DNA of 10,116 bases from Escherichia coli. GTDB lineage: Bacteria; Pseudomonadota; Gammaproteobacteria; Enterobacterales; Enterobacteriaceae. The first letter of the stretch is position 1. Each line of letters starts with the position of its first letter. The notes under the pieces were generated by a model. It was given only the letters and a program-made list of their open reading frames with translations. It searched no databases and was not told where the DNA came from. This document shows, in pieces, positions 1 to 10,116 of the stretch. The position numbers and the translations under genes were made by a program. Where the stretch lies: NCBI RefSeq assembly GCF_003334305.1, contig NZ_QOWS01000043.1; one strand, 5' to 3'.

Positions 1-76
1 GAGCGGTAGTTCAGTCGGTTAGAATACCTGCCTGTCACGCAGGGGGTCGCGGGTTCGAGTCCCGTCCGTTCCGCCA
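1..76 (+). tRNA. aspT: tRNA-Asp (anticodon GTC), truncated by 1 nt at the window edge (5' G missing)
   Basis: Sequence gagcggtagttcagtcggttagaatacctgcctgtcacgcagggggtcgcgggttcgagtcccgtccgttccgcca matches the E. coli tRNA-Asp sequence as I recall it, minus the first G. GTC anticodon at about 34-36 in the loop ctgtcac, T-arm ggttcgagtcc, encoded 3' CCA. The gene name is assigned by context (followed by tRNA-Trp and hdfR, as at the distal end of rrnC). Confidence 0.9.
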
Positions 77-84
77 CCCTAATT

Positions 85-160
85 AGGGGCGTAGTTCAAT
101 TGGTAGAGCACCGGTCTCCAAAACCGGGTGTTGGGAGTTCGAGTCTCTCCGCCCCTGCCA
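85..160 (+). tRNA. trpT: tRNA-Trp (anticodon CCA)
   Basis: 76-nt sequence aggggcgtagttcaattggtagagcaccggtctccaaaaccgggtgttgggagttcgagtctctccgcccctgcca matches E. coli tRNA-Trp as recalled. Anticodon CCA at 118-120, T-arm gttcgagtc, encoded CCA end. An 8-nt spacer (77-84) separates it from tRNA-Asp. Confidence 0.9.
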
Positions 161-165
161 GAAAT

Positions 166-195
166 CATCCTTAGCGAAAGCTAAGGATTTTTTTT
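166..195 (+). terminator. Rho-independent terminator downstream of the tRNA pair (end of the rRNA/tRNA transcription unit)
   Basis: Perfect 9-bp inverted repeat atccttagc (166-174) / gctaaggat (179-187) with a 4-nt loop gaaa, followed directly by a run of 8 T (188-195). Confidence 0.8.
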
Positions 196-3304: not shown

Positions 3305-3380
3305 CACTATTTTCTTTTTAAAAAACAACAATTTCTATTGAAATTATTAAACGCATCATAAAAATCGGCCAAAAAATATC
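3305..3380 (+). promoter_or_regulatory. AT-rich upstream activating region of the ilv operon promoter (UP-element / IHF-binding region expected here)
   Basis: About 80% A+T stretch with several A5-6 tracts (3320-3325, 3360-3364, 3371-3376) immediately upstream of the candidate core promoter. Published work on ilvGMEDA describes an upstream AT-rich activating region with an IHF site and a non-productive upstream promoter. Exact site boundaries cannot be fixed from sequence alone. Confidence 0.4.
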
Positions 3381-3421
3381 TTGTGCTATTCGCAAAATCT
3401 ATGGTAACTCTTTAGGCATTC
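3381..3421 (+). promoter_or_regulatory. Candidate core promoter and transcription start region for ilvLXGMEDA
   Basis: Candidate -35 TTGTGC (3381-3386) and candidate -10 hexamers in 3400-3410 (tatggt / taactc). A start near 3420 would give a leader of about 180 nt ending at the attenuator T-run (3596-3603), consistent with the recalled leader length. The hexamer assignment is uncertain. Confidence 0.35.
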
Positions 3422-3449
3422 CTTCGAACAAGATGCAAGAAAAGACAAA

Positions 3450-3548
3450 ATGACAGCCCTTCTACGAGTGATTAGCCTGGTCGTGATTAGCGTGGTGGTG
3501 ATTATTATCCCACCGTGCGGGGCTGCACTTGGACGAGGAAAGGCTTAG
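3450..3548 (+). CDS. ilvL: ilv operon leader peptide (32 aa): MTALLRVISLVVISVVVIIIPPCGAALGRGKA
   Basis: ATG at 3450 through TAG at 3546-3548. 15 of 32 codons encode Leu (4), Val (6) or Ile (5), the hallmark of the branched-chain amino acid attenuation leader. An intrinsic terminator lies immediately downstream. Confidence 0.9.
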   Translation: MTALLRVISLVVISVVVIIIPPCGAALGRGKA

Positions 3549-3569
3549 AGATCAAGCCTTAACGAACTA

Positions 3570-3603
3570 AGACCCCCGCACCGAAAGGTCCGGGGGTTTT
3601 TTT
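3570..3603 (+). terminator. ilv attenuator (Rho-independent terminator of the leader transcript)
   Basis: GC-rich stem acccccg (3571-3577) / cgggggt (3590-3596) followed by 8 consecutive T (3596-3603), 22 nt after the ilvL stop codon. Confidence 0.85.
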
Positions 3604-3634
3604 TGACCTTAAAAACATAACCGAGGAGCAGACA

Positions 3635-3685
3635 ATGAATAACAGCACAAAATTCTGTTTCTCAAGATTCAGGACGGGGAACTAA
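3635..3685 (+). CDS. ilvX: Small ORF ilvX (16 aa: [16 protein letters not shown]) between the attenuator and ilvG
   Basis: ATG at 3635-3637 preceded by GAGGAG (3624-3629), stop TAA at 3683-3685, two nt before the ilvG ATG. It matches the position and sequence of the described E. coli small protein IlvX as I recall it. Translation cannot be judged from sequence alone. Confidence 0.55.
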
Positions 3686-3687
3686 CT

Positions 3688-5334
3688 ATGAATGGCGCAC
3701 AGTGGGTGGTACATGCGTTGCGGGCACAGGGTGTGAACACCGTTTTCGGTTATCCGGGTGGCGCAATTATGCCGGTTTACGATGCATTGTATGACGGCGG
3801 CGTGGAGCACTTGCTGTGCCGACATGAGCAGGGTGCGGCAATGGCGGCTATCGGTTATGCCCGTGCTACCGGCAAAACTGGCGTATGTATCGCCACGTCT
3901 GGTCCGGGCGCAACCAACCTGATAACCGGGCTTGCGGACGCACTGTTAGATTCTATCCCTGTTGTTGCCATCACCGGTCAAGTGTCCGCACCGTTTATCG
4001 GCACGGACGCATTTCAGGAAGTGGATGTCCTGGGATTGTCGTTAGCCTGTACCAAGCACAGCTTTCTGGTGCAGTCGCTGGAAGAGTTGCCGCGCATTAT
4101 GGCTGAAGCATTCGACGTTGCCAGCTCAGGTCGTCCTGGTCCGGTTCTGGTCGATATCCCAAAAGATATCCAGCTAGCCAGCGGTGACCTGGAACCGTGG
4201 TTCACCACCGTTGAAAACGAAGTGACTTTCCCACATGCCGAAGTTGAGCAAGCGCGCCAGATGCTGGCAAAAGCGCAAAAACCGATGCTGTACGTTGGTG
4301 GTGGCGTGGGTATGGCGCAGGCAGTTCCTGCTTTACGAGAATTTCTCGCTACCACAAAAATGCCTGCCACCTGCACGCTGAAAGGGCTGGGCGCAGTTGA
4401 AGCAGATTATCCGTACTATCTGGGCATGCTGGGAATGCATGGCACCAAAGCGGCGAACTTCGCGGTGCAGGAGTGCGACTTGCTGATCGCCGTGGGTGCA
4501 CGTTTTGATGACCGGGTGACCGGCAAACTGAACACCTTCGCACCACACGCCAGTGTTATCCATATGGATATCGACCCGGCAGAAATGAACAAGCTGCGTC
4601 AGGCACATGTGGCATTACAAGGTGATTTAAATGCTCTGTTACCAGCATTACAGCAGCCGTTAAATATCAATGACTGGCAGCTACACTGCGCGCAGCTGCG
4701 TGATGAACATGCCTGGCGTTACGACCATCCCGGTGACGCTATCTACGCGCCATTGTTGTTAAAACAACTGTCGGATCGTAAACCTGCGGATTGCGTCGTG
4801 ACCACAGATGTGGGGCAGCACCAGATGTGGGCCGCGCAGCACATCGCACACACTCGCCCGGAAAATTTCATTACCTCCAGCGGCTTAGGCACCATGGGTT
4901 TCGGTTTACCAGCGGCGGTTGGCGCACAAGTCGCACGACCGAACGATACTGTCGTCTGTATCTCCGGTGACGGCTCTTTCATGATGAATGTGCAAGAGCT
5001 GGGCACCGTAAAACGCAAGCAGTTACCGTTGAAAATCGTCTTACTCGATAACCAACGGTTAGGGATGGTTCGACAATGGCAGCAACTGTTTTTTCAGGAA
5101 CGATACAGCGAAACCACCCTTACTGATAACCCCGATTTCCTCATGTTAGCCAGCGCCTTCGGCATCCCTGGCCAACACATCACCCGTAAAGACCAGGTTG
5201 AAGCGGCACTCGACACCATGCTGAACAGTGATGGGCCATACCTGCTTCATGTCTCAATCGACGAACTTGAGAACGTCTGGCCGCTGGTGCCGCCTGGCGC
5301 CAGTAATTCAGAAATGTTGGAGAAATTATCATGA
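3688..5334 (+). CDS. ilvG: Acetolactate synthase II (AHAS II) large catalytic subunit, intact 548 aa
   Basis: Uninterrupted 548-aa ORF starting [25 protein letters not shown] with a thiamine-diphosphate binding motif ([14 protein letters not shown]...LDN). GGGGA Shine-Dalgarno-like sequence 8 nt upstream. Followed by ilvM with a 4-nt overlap. Confidence 0.95.
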
Positions 5335-5613: not shown

Positions 5614-6543
5614 ATGACCACGAAGAAAGCTGATTACATTTGGTTCAATGGGGAGATGGTTCGCTGGGAAGACGCGAAGGTGCATGTGATGTCGCACGCG
5701 CTGCACTATGGCACCTCGGTTTTTGAAGGCATCCGTTGCTACGACTCACACAAAGGACCGGTTGTATTCCGCCATCGTGAGCATATGCAGCGTCTGCATG
5801 ACTCCGCCAAAATCTATCGCTTCCCGGTTTCACAGAGCATTGATGAGCTGATGGAAGCTTGTCGTGACGTGATCCGCAAAAATAATCTCACCAGCGCCTA
5901 TATCCGTCCGCTGATCTTCGTCGGTGATGTTGGCATGGGAGTAAACCCGCCAGCGGGATACTCAACCGACGTGATTATCGCTGCTTTCCCGTGGGGAGCG
6001 TATCTGGGCGCAGAAGCGCTGGAGCAGGGGATCGATGCGATGGTTTCCTCCTGGAACCGCGCAGCACCAAACACCATCCCGACGGCGGCAAAAGCCGGTG
6101 GTAACTACCTCTCTTCCCTGCTGGTGGGTAGCGAAGCGCGCCGCCACGGTTATCAGGAAGGTATCGCGCTGGATGTGAACGGTTATATCTCTGAAGGCGC
6201 AGGCGAAAACCTGTTTGAAGTGAAAGATGGTGTGCTGTTCACCCCACCGTTCACCTCCTCCGCGCTGCCGGGTATTACCCGTGATGCCATCATCAAACTG
6301 GCGAAAGAGCTGGGAATTGATGTGCGTGAGCAGGTTCTGTCGCGCGAATCCCTGTACCTGGCGGATGAAGTGTTTATGTCCGGTACGGCGGCAGAAATCA
6401 CGCCAGTGCGCAGCGTAGACGGTATTCAGGTTGGCGAAGGCCGTTGTGGCCCGGTTACCAAACGCATTCAGCAAGCCTTCTTCGGCCTCTTCACTGGCGA
6501 AACCGAAGATAAATGGGGCTGGTTAGATCAAGTTAATCAATAA
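5614..6543 (+). CDS. ilvE: Branched-chain amino acid aminotransferase (PLP fold type IV), 309 aa
   Basis: ORF starting at ATG 5614 (MTTKKADYIWFNGEMVRWEDAKVHV...) preceded by AAGGA at 5601-5605. The track's 331-aa version starts at an upstream TTG (5548) inside ilvM and is an over-extension. Sequence matches IlvE as recalled. Confidence 0.92.
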   Translation: MTTKKADYIWFNGEMVRWEDAKVHVMSHALHYGTSVFEGIRCYDSHKGPVVFRHREHMQRLHDSAKIYRFPVSQSIDELMEACRDVIRKNNLTSAYIRPLIFVGDVGMGVNPPAGYSTDVIIAAFPWGAYLGAEALEQGIDAMVSSWNRAAPNTIPTAAKAGGNYLSSLLVGSEARRHGYQEGIALDVNGYISEGAGENLFEVKDGVLFTPPFTSSALPGITRDAIIKLAKELGIDVREQVLSRESLYLADEVFMSGTAAEITPVRSVDGIQVGEGRCGPVTKRIQQAFFGLFTGETEDKWGWLDQVNQ

Positions 6544-6552
6544 ATACAAAAA

Positions 6553-6577
6553 ATGGGACGGCACGCACCGTCCCATT
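6553..6577 (+). other. Intercistronic stem-loop between ilvE and ilvD (possible weak terminator / mRNA stability or processing element)
   Basis: Perfect 8-bp inverted repeat tgggacgg (6553-6560) / ccgtccca (6567-6574) with a 6-nt loop, preceded by an A-run and followed by only TTT. This is not a strong U-tract, so partial termination at most. Confidence 0.5.
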
Positions 6578-6607
6578 TACGAGACAGACACTGGGAGTAA
6601 ATAAAGT

Positions 6608-8458
6608 ATGCCTAAGTACCGTTCCGCCACCACCACTCATGGTCGTAATATGGCGGGTGCTCGTGCGCTGTGGCGCGCCACCGGAATGACCGACGCCGAT
6701 TTCGGTAAGCCGATTATCGCGGTTGTGAACTCGTTCACCCAATTTGTACCGGGTCACGTCCATCTGCGCGATCTCGGTAAACTGGTCGCCGAACAAATTG
6801 AAGCGGCTGGCGGCGTTGCCAAAGAGTTCAACACCATTGCGGTGGATGATGGGATTGCCATGGGCCACGGGGGGATGCTTTATTCACTGCCATCTCGCGA
6901 ACTGATCGCTGATTCCGTTGAGTATATGGTCAACGCCCACTGCGCCGACGCCATGGTCTGCATCTCTAACTGCGACAAAATCACCCCGGGGATGCTGATG
7001 GCTTCCCTGCGCCTGAATATTCCGGTGATCTTTGTTTCCGGCGGCCCGATGGAGGCCGGGAAAACCAAACTGTCCGATCAGATAATCAAACTCGATCTGG
7101 TTGATGCGATGATCCAGGGCGCAGACCCGAAAGTTTCTGACTCCCAGAGCGATCAGGTTGAACGTTCCGCGTGTCCGACCTGCGGCTCCTGCTCCGGGAT
7201 GTTTACCGCTAACTCAATGAACTGCCTGACCGAAGCGCTGGGTCTGTCGCAGCCGGGCAACGGCTCGCTGCTGGCAACCCACGCCGACCGTAAGCAGTTG
7301 TTCCTCAATGCCGGTAAACGCATTGTTGAATTGACCAAACGTTACTACGAGCAAAACGACGAAAGTGCACTGCCGCGCAATATTGCTAGCAAAGCGGCGT
7401 TTGAAAACGCCATGACGCTGGATATCGCGATGGGTGGATCGACTAACACCGTACTTCACCTGCTGGCGGCGGCGCAGGAAGCGGAAATCGACTTCACCAT
7501 GAGTGATATCGATAAGCTTTCCCGCAAGGTTCCACAGCTGTGTAAAGTTGCGCCGAGCACCCAGAAATACCATATGGAAGATGTTCACCGTGCTGGTGGT
7601 GTTATCGGTATTCTCGGCGAACTGGATCGCGCGGGGTTACTGAACCGTGATGTGAAAAACGTACTTGGCCTGACGTTGCCGCAAACGCTGGAACAATACG
7701 ACGTTATGCTGACCCAGGATGACGCGGTAAAAAATATGTTCCGCGCAGGTCCTGCAGGCATTCGTACCACACAGGCATTCTCGCAGGATTGCCGTTGGGA
7801 TTCTCTCGATGACGATCGCGCCAATGGCTGTATCCGCTCGCTGGAACACGCCTACAGCAAAGACGGCGGCCTGGCGGTGCTCTACGGTAATTTCGCAGAA
7901 AACGGCTGCATCGTTAAAACCGCGGGCGTCGATGACAGCATCCTCAAATTCACCGGCCCGGCGAAAGTGTACGAAAGCCAGGACGACGCGGTAGAAGCGA
8001 TCCTCGGTGGCAAAGTTGTCGCGGGCGATGTGGTGGTGATCCGCTATGAAGGCCCGAAAGGCGGCCCTGGCATGCAGGAAATGCTCTACCCAACCAGCTT
8101 CCTGAAATCAATGGGTCTCGGTAAAGCCTGTGCGCTGATCACCGACGGTCGTTTCTCTGGCGGCACCTCTGGTCTTTCCATCGGCCACGTCTCACCGGAA
8201 GCGGCAAGCGGCGGCAGCATTGGTCTGATTGAAGATGGTGACCTGATCGCTATCGACATCCCGAACCGTGGCATTCAGTTACAGGTAAGCGATGCCGAAC
8301 TGGCGGCGCGTCGTGAAGCGCAGGAAGCTCGGGGTGACAAAGCCTGGACGCCGAAAAACCGTGAACGTCAGGTTTCCTTTGCCCTGCGCGCCTACGCCAG
8401 CCTGGCAACCAGCGCCGACAAAGGTGCGGTGCGCGATAAATCGAAACTGGGGGGTTAA
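6608..8458 (+). CDS. ilvD: Dihydroxy-acid dehydratase, 616 aa
   Basis: 616-aa ORF starting [26 protein letters not shown]. Cysteine cluster [11 protein letters not shown] consistent with Fe-S cluster ligation in the IlvD/EDD dehydratase family. GGGAG upstream of the ATG. Confidence 0.95.
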
Positions 8459-8460
8459 TA

Positions 8461-10005
8461 ATGGCTGACTCGCAACCCCTGTCCGGTGCTCCGGAAGGTG
8501 CCGAATATTTAAGAGCAGTGCTGCGTGCGCCGGTTTACGAGGCGGCGCAGGTTACGCCGCTACAAAAAATGGAAAAACTGTCGTCGCGTCTTGATAACGT
8601 CATTCTGGTGAAGCGCGAAGATCGCCAGCCAGTGCACAGCTTTAAGCTGCGCGGCGCATACGCCATGATGGCGGGCCTGACGGAAGAACAAAAAGCGCAC
8701 GGCGTGATCACTGCTTCTGCGGGTAACCACGCGCAGGGCGTCGCGTTTTCTTCTGCGCGGTTAGGCGTGAAGGCCCTGATCGTTATGCCAACCGCCACCG
8801 CCGACATCAAAGTCGATGCGGTACGTGGATTCGGCGGCGAAGTGCTGCTTCATGGCGCGAACTTTGACGAAGCGAAAGCTAAAGCGATCGAACTGTCACA
8901 GCAGCAGGGGTTCACCTGGGTGCCGCCGTTCGACCATCCGATGGTGATTGCCGGGCAAGGCACGCTGGCGCTGGAACTGCTCCAGCAGGACGCCCATCTC
9001 GACCGCGTATTTGTGCCAGTCGGCGGCGGCGGTCTGGCGGCGGGCGTTGCGGTGCTGATCAAACAACTGATGCCACAAATCAAAGTGATCGCCGTAGAAG
9101 CGGAAGACTCCGCCTGCCTGAAAGCAGCGCTGGATGCGGGTCATCCGGTTGATCTGCCGCGCGTAGGGCTATTTGCTGAAGGCGTAGCGGTAAAACGCAT
9201 CGGTGACGAAACCTTCCGTTTATGCCAGGAGTATCTCGACGACATCATCACCGTCGATAGTGATGCGATCTGTGCGGCGATGAAGGATTTATTCGAAGAT
9301 GTGCGCGCGGTGGCGGAACCCTCTGGCGCGCTGGCGCTGGCGGGAATGAAAAAATATATCGCCCAGCACAACATTCGCGGCGAACGGCTGGCGCATATTC
9401 TTTCCGGTGCCAACGTGAACTTCCACGGCCTGCGCTACGTCTCGGAACGCTGCGAACTGGGCGAACAGCGTGAAGCGTTGTTGGCGGTGACCATTCCGGA
9501 AGAAAAAGGCAGCTTCCTCAAATTCTGCCAACTGCTTGGCGGGCGATCGGTCACCGAGTTCAACTACCGTTTTGCCGATGCCAAAAACGCCTGCATCTTT
9601 GTCGGCGTGCGCCTGAGCCGCGGCCTCGAAGAGCGCAAAGAAATTTTGCAGATGCTCAACGACGGCGGCTACAGCGTGGTGGATCTCTCCGACGACGAAA
9701 TGGCGAAGTTGCATGTGCGCTATATGGTCGGCGGGCGTCCGTCACATCCGTTGCAGGAACGCCTCTACAGCTTCGAATTCCCGGAATCACCGGGCGCGCT
9801 GCTGCGCTTCCTCAACACGCTGGGTACGCACTGGAACATTTCTTTGTTCCACTATCGCAGCCATGGCACCGACTACGGGCGCGTACTGGCGGCGTTCGAA
9901 CTCGGCGACCATGAACCGGATTTCGAAACCCGGCTAAATGAGCTGGGCTACGATTGCCACGACGAAACCAATAATCCGGCGTTCAGGTTCTTTTTGGCGG
10001 GTTAG
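8461..10005 (+). CDS. ilvA: Threonine deaminase (biosynthetic threonine dehydratase), 514 aa
   Basis: 514-aa ORF starting MADSQPLSGAPEGAEYLRAV with the PLP-lysine motif SFKLRGA and a C-terminal regulatory (ACT-like) region. It starts 2 nt after the ilvD stop, with a G-rich Shine-Dalgarno inside the ilvD 3' end. Confidence 0.95.
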   Translation: MADSQPLSGAPEGAEYLRAVLRAPVYEAAQVTPLQKMEKLSSRLDNVILVKREDRQPVHSFKLRGAYAMMAGLTEEQKAHGVITASAGNHAQGVAFSSARLGVKALIVMPTATADIKVDAVRGFGGEVLLHGANFDEAKAKAIELSQQQGFTWVPPFDHPMVIAGQGTLALELLQQDAHLDRVFVPVGGGGLAAGVAVLIKQLMPQIKVIAVEAEDSACLKAALDAGHPVDLPRVGLFAEGVAVKRIGDETFRLCQEYLDDIITVDSDAICAAMKDLFEDVRAVAEPSGALALAGMKKYIAQHNIRGERLAHILSGANVNFHGLRYVSERCELGEQREALLAVTIPEEKGSFLKFCQLLGGRSVTEFNYRFADAKNACIFVGVRLSRGLEERKEILQMLNDGGYSVVDLSDDEMAKLHVRYMVGGRPSHPLQERLYSFEFPESPGALLRFLNTLGTHWNISLFHYRSHGTDYGRVLAAFELGDHEPDFETRLNELGYDCHDETNNPAFRFFLAG

Positions 10006-10013
10006 GGAAAAAT

Positions 10014-10116
<103 letters not shown>

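Follow-up and report, generated by a model that had tools for sequence, protein, structure and literature searches.

The window, i.e. the whole stretch of DNA that was analysed (10,116 nt), covers the E. coli ilv region and contains tRNA-Trp, maoP, yifB on the minus strand, the ilvL leader and the genes ilvG, ilvM, ilvE, ilvD and ilvA. At its start lie a 5'-truncated tRNA (1-73, plus strand), tRNA-Trp (anticodon CCA; 85-160, plus strand) and then a strong hairpin of the terminator type with a T7 tail (167-188, plus strand); this stretch seems to be the distal end of an rRNA operon that lies upstream of maoP. The ilvL leader/attenuator region (3379-3668, plus strand) is matched with 157 bits by Rfam family RF02744 ('Rev39_5p_UTR', soft-rot Enterobacteriaceae), a family that seems to describe the ilv leader by a different name. 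In the window ilvG is intact, whereas K-12 MG1655 carries an annotated frameshifted pseudogene. The window thus stems from a non-K-12 E. coli, in spite of the identical ilvE-ilvD gap. A 9-bp hairpin without a clear U-tract on the plus strand (GCCTGATAGCGCTTCGCTTATCAGGC, 10014-10039, plus strand) is located just past the ilvA stop codon, where ilvA and ilvY converge. The features around the ilvE-ilvD junction are as follows:

3688-5334, plus strand: ilvG, intact ORF, 548 aa
5614-6543, plus strand: ilvE CDS, 309 aa (MTTKKADYIW...WLDQVNQ*), stop codon TAA at 6541-6543; from translation and the RefSeq annotation of an identical E. coli sequence
6540-6578, minus strand: palindrome with the form of a reverse-strand intrinsic terminator, stem 6578 to 6551 followed by UUUUUUGUAUUUA
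6544-6550, plus strand: A-rich single-stranded linker, ATACAAAAAAT, which supplies the U6 tract of the terminator-like sequence on the reverse strand
6551-6561, plus strand: hairpin 5' arm, AAATGGGACGG; from the inverted repeat, the MFE structure and covarying columns 24-31 of alignment A2
6562-6567, plus strand: hexaloop CACGCA, conserved in the Escherichia-like family and different in other families
6568-6578, plus strand: hairpin 3' arm, CCGTCCCATTT; from the inverted repeat, the MFE structure and covarying columns 40-47 of alignment A2
6583-6602, plus strand: pairing site for the R3 seed of the sRNA GcvB, outside the hairpin and overlapping the ilvD Shine-Dalgarno sequence GGGAG (6593-6597)
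6608-8458, plus strand: ilvD CDS, 616 aa, ATG at 6608; from the ORF list and the RefSeq annotation of an identical sequence
8461-10005, plus strand: ilvA CDS

A stable hairpin in a 64-nt intercistronic gap between ilvE and ilvD had been proposed from the sequence of the window. The length of the gap is exact (6544-6607, between the TAA at 6541-6543 and the ATG at 6608) and the hairpin is real, being a perfect inverted repeat with a covarying stem and a fold far more stable than that of shuffled sequences. The original prediction described it as an 8-bp perfect stem at 6553-6574; the pairing is indeed perfect, whereas the size and coordinates were a few bases off, since the two 11-bp arms (6551-6561 and 6568-6578) enclose the 6-nt loop at 6562-6567. 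The GC-rich core of the stem comprises 6555-6561 and 6568-6574, and a run of six A residues (6548-6553) extends from the linker into the stem base. RNA folding of the gap yielded -19.0 kcal/mol compared with -8.3 +/- 2.2 kcal/mol for dinucleotide shuffles (z = -4.8), and none of 200 shuffles folded as well. With 11 bp, 6 G-C pairs and a position 7 nt past the ilvE stop codon, the element is a GC-rich stem-loop 3' of a gene, as found at sense-strand terminators.

Within E. coli, the hairpin is essentially invariant. K-12 MG1655 has the same sequence over 101 nt around the gap, which there occupies 3953414-3953477. Of 5,423 complete E. coli genomes, 5,063 match the region with an identity of 99% or more. 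The hairpin sequence itself hardly varies among ca. 5,300 E. coli genomes and E. albertii, and a 41-nt hairpin query matched a median of one place per genome in the 5,300 E. coli genomes, indicating a single-copy element. No RefSeq feature is annotated at the hairpin, and a cmscan search of the window against Rfam at E <= 1 returned no match within 6500-6650.

Comparison with relatives was based on two scans: a genome scan with the IlvD N-terminus resulted in 80 loci and a scan of metagenomes with a pattern that covers the ilvD Shine-Dalgarno sequence and start in ca. 120 further loci, together yielding 89 unique ilvE-ilvD gaps. A GC-rich stem was present in every unique gap of 50-75 nt from enterobacterial genomes and metagenomes (71/71) versus 11% of shuffled gaps. 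The stems belong to at least six unrelated sequence families. One of these, GGGACGG-CACGCA-CCGTCCC, was found in Escherichia, Citrobacter sp. FP75, Superficieibacter (loci L002, L006, L007) and many metagenome contigs; Enterobacter sp. BIGb0383 (L005) and several contigs have the closely related GGGGCGG...CCGCC(T/C)C. Others are CGCGGGCGC-AGCA-GYGCCCGCG, CGCGGACGTC-ATCT-GACGTCCGCG and, in Photorhabdus, CAGGCGG-TTCGTTCC-CCGCCTG, and stems starting with GCAGGTGGC or GGGCGTC represent further families among still others. A hairpin of the same geometry is thus held in place throughout the Enterobacterales by compensatory substitutions as well as wholesale sequence replacement.

Covariation was analysed in a MAFFT alignment of 48 gaps (A2), from which RNAalifold recovers the hairpin. 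Double compensatory changes were observed at all eight pairs (8/8). Across the 48 sequences, 91.9% of the cells were paired, compared with 71% in shuffles and 41-50% when the partner was slid along the alignment, and the covariation score reached 0.573 compared with 0.226 in shuffles and at most 0.134 in the slid controls; the observed values were reached by none of 500 shuffles. The strand under selection was addressed with symmetric scoring that penalised G·T and A·C equally, counting transition mismatches in the helices of 52 distinct stems. This resulted in 26 G·U wobbles on the plus-strand RNA compared with 5 on the minus-strand RNA (binomial p = 2e-4, a value that is indicative only because the sequences are not phylogenetically independent). 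The tracts next to the stem are far less constant: at least five T in the 8 nt after the stem were found in 14 of 77 gaps, for example in Photorhabdus (UUUGUUUUGAU) and the metagenome contig L141 (UUUUGCUG), and 35 of the 77 have neither a flanking A-run nor a T-run. Given the 26:5 excess of G·U pairs and since neither flanking tract is general, the conserved entity is the fold of the sense mRNA and not an antisense terminator. This is in good agreement with the proposal that the hairpin is a functional element of the sense ilv mRNA, as its stem covaries across the Enterobacterales and its G·U pairs fit the plus strand. It is therefore very likely that the boundary of ilvE and ilvD carries a functional RNA stem-loop on the sense strand which is conserved across this order.

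Some longer gaps contain mobile repeats. ERIC/IRU repeats (CCCAGGAGCTTAC...GTGACTGGGGTGAGCG) fill the ilvE-ilvD gap at L004, L082, L107, L136, L156 and L182 (153-160 nt), and the gaps of 186-190 nt at L134/L144 and L159 are likewise ERIC/IRU-bearing. In some Citrobacter-like genomes ERIC, itself a long RNA stem-loop, is found in place of the hairpin. In other contigs the hairpin is retained and ERIC-like DNA, inversely oriented, lies upstream of it; the retained hairpin of L134 shows a compensatory GGGATGG/CCATCCC change. Outside the Enterobacterales, we found no consistent hairpin in Vibrio, Shewanella, Haemophilus/Pasteurellaceae or Alteromonadales, with Vibrionaceae having ilvE-ilvD gaps of 12-34 nt and no hairpin. 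Aeromonas (L010) and an Aeromonas-like contig (L098) have gaps of 146 and 124 nt, respectively, with a strong hairpin directly past the ilvE stop codon. The L098 hairpin has a UUUGUUUC tail, and ca. 90 nt more spacer precede ilvD in Aeromonas, an arrangement which suggests that ilvE and ilvD transcripts are more completely separated there.

Two alternative pairings of the 3' arm were considered and rejected. The ilvE codons for Asp-Lys-Trp-Gly (TAAATGGG, 6510-6517) are perfectly complementary to the 3' arm (CCCATTTA, 6572-6579), and scrambling the 5' arm in silico made the 3' arm pair with these codons instead. This 8-bp pairing uses the codons of a conserved DKWG motif, has no equivalent in other hairpin families and is probably due to chance. 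Similarly, an anti-Shine-Dalgarno switch (UCCCA in the 3' arm with UGGGA at the Shine-Dalgarno sequence) has little effect on folding, and the other hairpin families lack the complementarity.

The original prediction also stated that a proper U-tract is missing. This applies to the plus strand, where the tail is AUUUACGAG with only three U and a best TransTermHP-style score of -3.53, and does not apply to the minus strand, where UUUUUUGUAUUUA follows the stem. For comparison, the hairpin of the terminator type that follows tRNA-Trp in the window has a tail score of -5.72, and a consensus terminator scan of the window did not call the ilvE-ilvD hairpin on the plus strand. Because of this difference in tail scores, the hairpin is unlikely to be a full terminator, as had been anticipated. 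Published 3'-end maps were used as an additional line of evidence. Adams et al. 2021 provide curated Term-seq 3'-end tables for MG1655 grown in LB to OD 0.4 and 2.0 and in M63 glucose, in lists that keep dominant peaks and could miss minor or weak ends. The complete curated tables hold no 3' end labelled ilvE or ilvD, or located at 39532xx-39534xx, on either strand under the three conditions, while the ilvL attenuator ends at 3950400 and 3950406 are listed. Three roles had been suggested for the hairpin, namely partial termination, 3'-end protection and a processing mark. The lack of a listed 3' end in the gap on either strand speaks against strong termination or a strong build-up of 3' ends in E. 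coli. By gene name, ilvE occurs in the Salmonella TIER-seq supplements (RNase E cleavage map) only in a 5'-UTR table. Internal terminators as such are frequent in E. coli, where Conway et al. 2014 (PMC4161252) mapped 264 of them, and those with read-through are common in operons.

The explanation we tentatively favour, at a likelihood somewhat short of even, is that of an intra-operon punctuation hairpin of the terminator type, which in E. coli acts as a decay barrier or a very leaky terminator. The stem-loop of the sense ilvLXGMEDA mRNA would punctuate the polycistronic transcript at the ilvE/ilvD junction. As a hairpin of the terminator type with a degenerate U-tract in E. coli, it would let most RNA polymerases read through and would act mainly after transcription, as a roadblock to processive decay. 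Exonucleases moving 3'->5' from the ilvDA side would be blocked, possibly together with RNase E scanning from the ilvGME side, and within one transcript the lifetimes of the ilv(G)ME and ilvDA segments would be partly independent. In lineages with a real U-run after the stem, such as Photorhabdus, the same element is probably a leaky terminator. The geometry of the element is that of terminator hairpins, with a GC-rich stem of 7-11 bp and a loop of 4-8 nt just past a stop codon. Further, a stable RNA structure maintained between two cistrons, as seen from the covarying pairs and its presence in all short gaps, is what characterises decay barriers. Three observations count against this explanation. 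The poor plus-strand tail speaks against a terminator-type element in E. coli. Either a strong barrier or partial termination to a sizeable extent would be expected to produce a 3' end, and none is listed in the Term-seq tables. Finally, a pure 3'-end element of ilvE would not need a fixed distance to ilvD.

Such a fixed distance was indeed observed. Between the end of the stem and the ilvD ATG, all 71 short gaps (71/71) have 22-30 nt (median 28), compared with 2-24 nt between the ilvE stop codon and the hairpin. In addition, six long gaps keep the hairpin, and their extra DNA always lies between the ilvE stop codon and the hairpin. The fixed spacing points to a functional tie of the hairpin with the ilvD start. 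The upstream position of the insertions could have other causes, namely the small target size and the preference of mobile repeats for AT-rich insertion sites. The GcvB site starts 5 nt after the stem end. Miyakoshi et al. 2021 (PMC9299463) found that GcvB represses an ilvD translational fusion via its R3 seed and validated the pairing with the compensatory pair ilvD C-19G / GcvB G156C. In the window, position -19 from the ilvD ATG is C6589, and its predicted pairing partner is GcvB G156, as in the published mutants. The predicted duplex of GcvB nt 135-172 with 6575-6612 has an energy of -21 kcal/mol with pairing over 6583-6602; the prediction was restricted to the R3 region, as full-length GcvB resulted in meaningless long duplexes. 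The CAGAC motif is kept in Escherichia-like families and absent from the families with a U-rich spacer. Since the latter retain the hairpin, it does not depend on GcvB. A thermodynamic test for insulation of the ribosome binding site showed only small changes overall (0-2.8 kcal/mol with one arm scrambled): scrambling the 3' arm in silico raised the cost of opening the region from the Shine-Dalgarno sequence to the AUG by 2-2.8 kcal/mol in 3 of 5 variants, and scrambles of the 5' arm had no effect.

These data bear on the main rival explanation, according to which the hairpin belongs functionally to ilvD and organises its translation-initiation region. It would stop ribosomes coming from the ilvE stop codon from sliding on or re-initiating, keep upstream RNA off the ribosome binding site and leave the CA-rich GcvB site, along with the Shine-Dalgarno sequence, within a defined single-stranded stretch, allowing independent initiation at ilvD and repression by GcvB-Hfq that spares ilvE. 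The constant distance to the ATG across unrelated stem families, the insertions placed exclusively upstream, the validated R3 site next to the stem, the lack of a hairpin-associated 3' end in Term-seq and the increased opening cost after 3'-arm scrambling are all consistent with such a role. Against it, the computed accessibility effect is small and nil for 5'-arm scrambles, the U-rich-spacer families keep the hairpin without CAGAC, the insertion pattern can be explained by target size and the AT-rich preference of the repeats, and Vibrionaceae cope with their short gaps lacking a hairpin. On balance, we regard an organising role at ilvD as a serious but rather unlikely alternative to the punctuation hairpin.

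A further and more speculative option, which we rate as improbable, combines several of these elements and treats the hairpin as the structural core of a module for discoordinate control within the ilv operon. Closing of the stem base would bring the A-run, a candidate ARN-type Hfq distal-face site, beside the GcvB R3 site and the Shine-Dalgarno sequence, while the hairpin would block translational coupling from ilvE. In this way ilvDA could be silenced by GcvB-Hfq separately from ilvGME; the A-run would, in the Escherichia lineage, also create a terminator on the antisense strand. If true, one amino-acid operon would be divided by a conserved cis-acting RNA element into halves that are regulated separately.

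The original prediction had overlooked the terminator-like sequence on the reverse strand, along with the fixed hairpin-ilvD spacing and the validated GcvB site abutting the stem. Read on the minus strand, the palindrome has the sequence AAAUGGGACGGUGCGUGCCGUCCCAUUUUUUGUAUUUA, in which a stem is followed by a U-tract. The terminator form results from the A6 run upstream of the stem. The minus-strand tail scores -5.62, compared with -3.53 on the plus strand and -5.72 for the tRNA-Trp hairpin; the site is the first listed among the terminator-like sites in a scan of the whole 10-kb window, and its fold has an energy of -19.1 kcal/mol (z = -3.6). Judged by sequence, the palindrome is a canonical antisense-oriented intrinsic terminator for any antisense transcript from ilvD. 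Based on these properties, the selected function could be antisense termination, halting antisense transcripts of ilvD/ilvA or convergent ilvY read-through before ilvE and thereby avoiding collision. Runs of 5-7 A before the stem in E. albertii, Superficieibacter, L111, L124 and L157 would fit such a function. We nevertheless consider it quite unlikely. The wobble asymmetry favours the sense RNA, as the corresponding pairs are A·C mismatches on the antisense RNA. Only 29 of 77 unique gaps have at least five A in the 8 nt before the stem, and entire families lack such a run; the combination of stem and U-tract is thus not generally maintained in relatives. Furthermore, a promoter scan found no promoter-like site on the minus strand above 6578 in the window, i.e. 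downstream of the hairpin, and the Term-seq lists contain no minus-strand 3' end at 39534xx, so that neither source provides a transcript reaching and ending at the palindrome. Adams et al. 2021 report a Rho-dependent region antisense to ilvA at 3956067, far downstream, indicating that ilvA antisense transcripts are Rho-terminated. A minus-strand ORF (6533-6868, 111 aa, GTG start) that is antisense to the ilvD start and runs through the hairpin at its 3' end had no support and was rejected as spurious. For the Escherichia lineage, we take the reverse-strand terminator as a probable side effect and not as the selected function.

An efficient sense terminator that ends an ilvLXGME unit, with ilvDA being expressed from its own promoter, appears highly improbable. 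The hairpin does lie just past a stop codon, and an internal promoter 'ilvDp' is mentioned in passing in PMC5179076; the papers cited there for it, however, deal with ilvAp and ilvEp. The weak sense tail and the lack of a listed Term-seq 3' end argue against this possibility, the 29 nt from the stem to the ATG leave no room for a promoter downstream of the stem, and a promoter scan found no promoter-like site in 5900-6600. Equally improbable are readings as a palindrome that arose by chance, as the remnant of a mobile repeat (REP/BIME/ERIC) or as a protein-binding site acting at the DNA level without an RNA role: although ERIC palindromes do invade the gap in some genera, the hairpin does not match the ERIC inserts seen in L004, L082, L107 and L159 and is single copy in E. 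coli, where such repeats would have many copies with a consensus, its covariation is far higher than in the shuffle or slide controls, the uneven G·U counts indicate RNA, and the same fold is kept by unrelated sequences, which a sequence-specific DNA-binding site would not allow. To our knowledge, the hairpin bears no resemblance to REP sequences either.

Although ilvGMEDA is a textbook operon, its ilvE-ilvD junction carries neither a RefSeq annotation nor an Rfam family. The hairpin represents an RNA fold that is kept across a whole bacterial order and located beside a validated sRNA target. It offers an easily mutable handle on the unequal expression of the two halves of a biosynthetic operon and is of relevance to valine and isoleucine production strains, for which ilvE-ilvD cassettes are often moved with the gap included. 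No mention of the hairpin was found in the searchable literature, which leaves out the 1987 papers that first reported the sequence. The conceptual gain is modest, as intra-operon hairpins and leaky terminators are a well-known kind of element; the ilvE-ilvD example is unannotated and absent from Rfam.

Several known elements resemble the hairpin in part. The 'ilvD motif' described by Breaker's lab is a Veillonella element and unrelated. ERIC/IRU sequences, which likewise form an RNA stem-loop, lie in the ilvE-ilvD gap of Citrobacter-like genomes, but ERIC is a multi-copy mobile repeat of ca. 127 bp, whereas the E. coli hairpin is a single-copy element of 28 nt with unrelated sequence. Bidirectional terminators, which consist of an A-tract, a stem and a U-tract and are typically located between convergent genes, have a similar layout of A-run, palindrome and U residues. 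In contrast to these, the ilvE-ilvD hairpin lies between co-directional genes of one operon, only its reverse-strand tract is canonical, and the comparative data indicate selection on the sense RNA. The GcvB-Hfq target sites of the ilvLXGMEDA mRNA (PMC9299463) include the R3 site in the same 64-nt gap, 5 nt past the stem; the hairpin differs from this site in lying outside the predicted duplex and being conserved also in lineages without CAGAC.

The closest counterparts are found in two classes of intra-operon structures. Intercistronic stem-loops that stabilise mRNA are known from the malE-malF REP sequences, the Rhodobacter puf operon and E. coli papB-papA. These are likewise stable hairpins between cistrons, able to block 3'->5' exonucleases and resulting in differing lifetimes of transcript segments. 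Unlike the malE-malF REP sequences, the ilvE-ilvD hairpin is present in single copy and not a repeated element, and while the class is defined by a fragment ending at the hairpin and by differential half-lives, the ilvE-ilvD hairpin is known from sequence comparison. Leaky intra-operon terminators, such as those of sdhCDAB-sucABCD and rpsU-dnaG and the rplL-rpoB attenuator, similarly consist of a GC-rich stem-loop a few nucleotides past a stop codon, with the distal genes still being expressed. In E. coli, the ilvE-ilvD hairpin differs from this class in having a sense U-tract of only UUU and no 3' end in the Term-seq lists examined, whereas in some enterobacterial lineages its stem is followed by a genuine U-run, as in leaky terminators.
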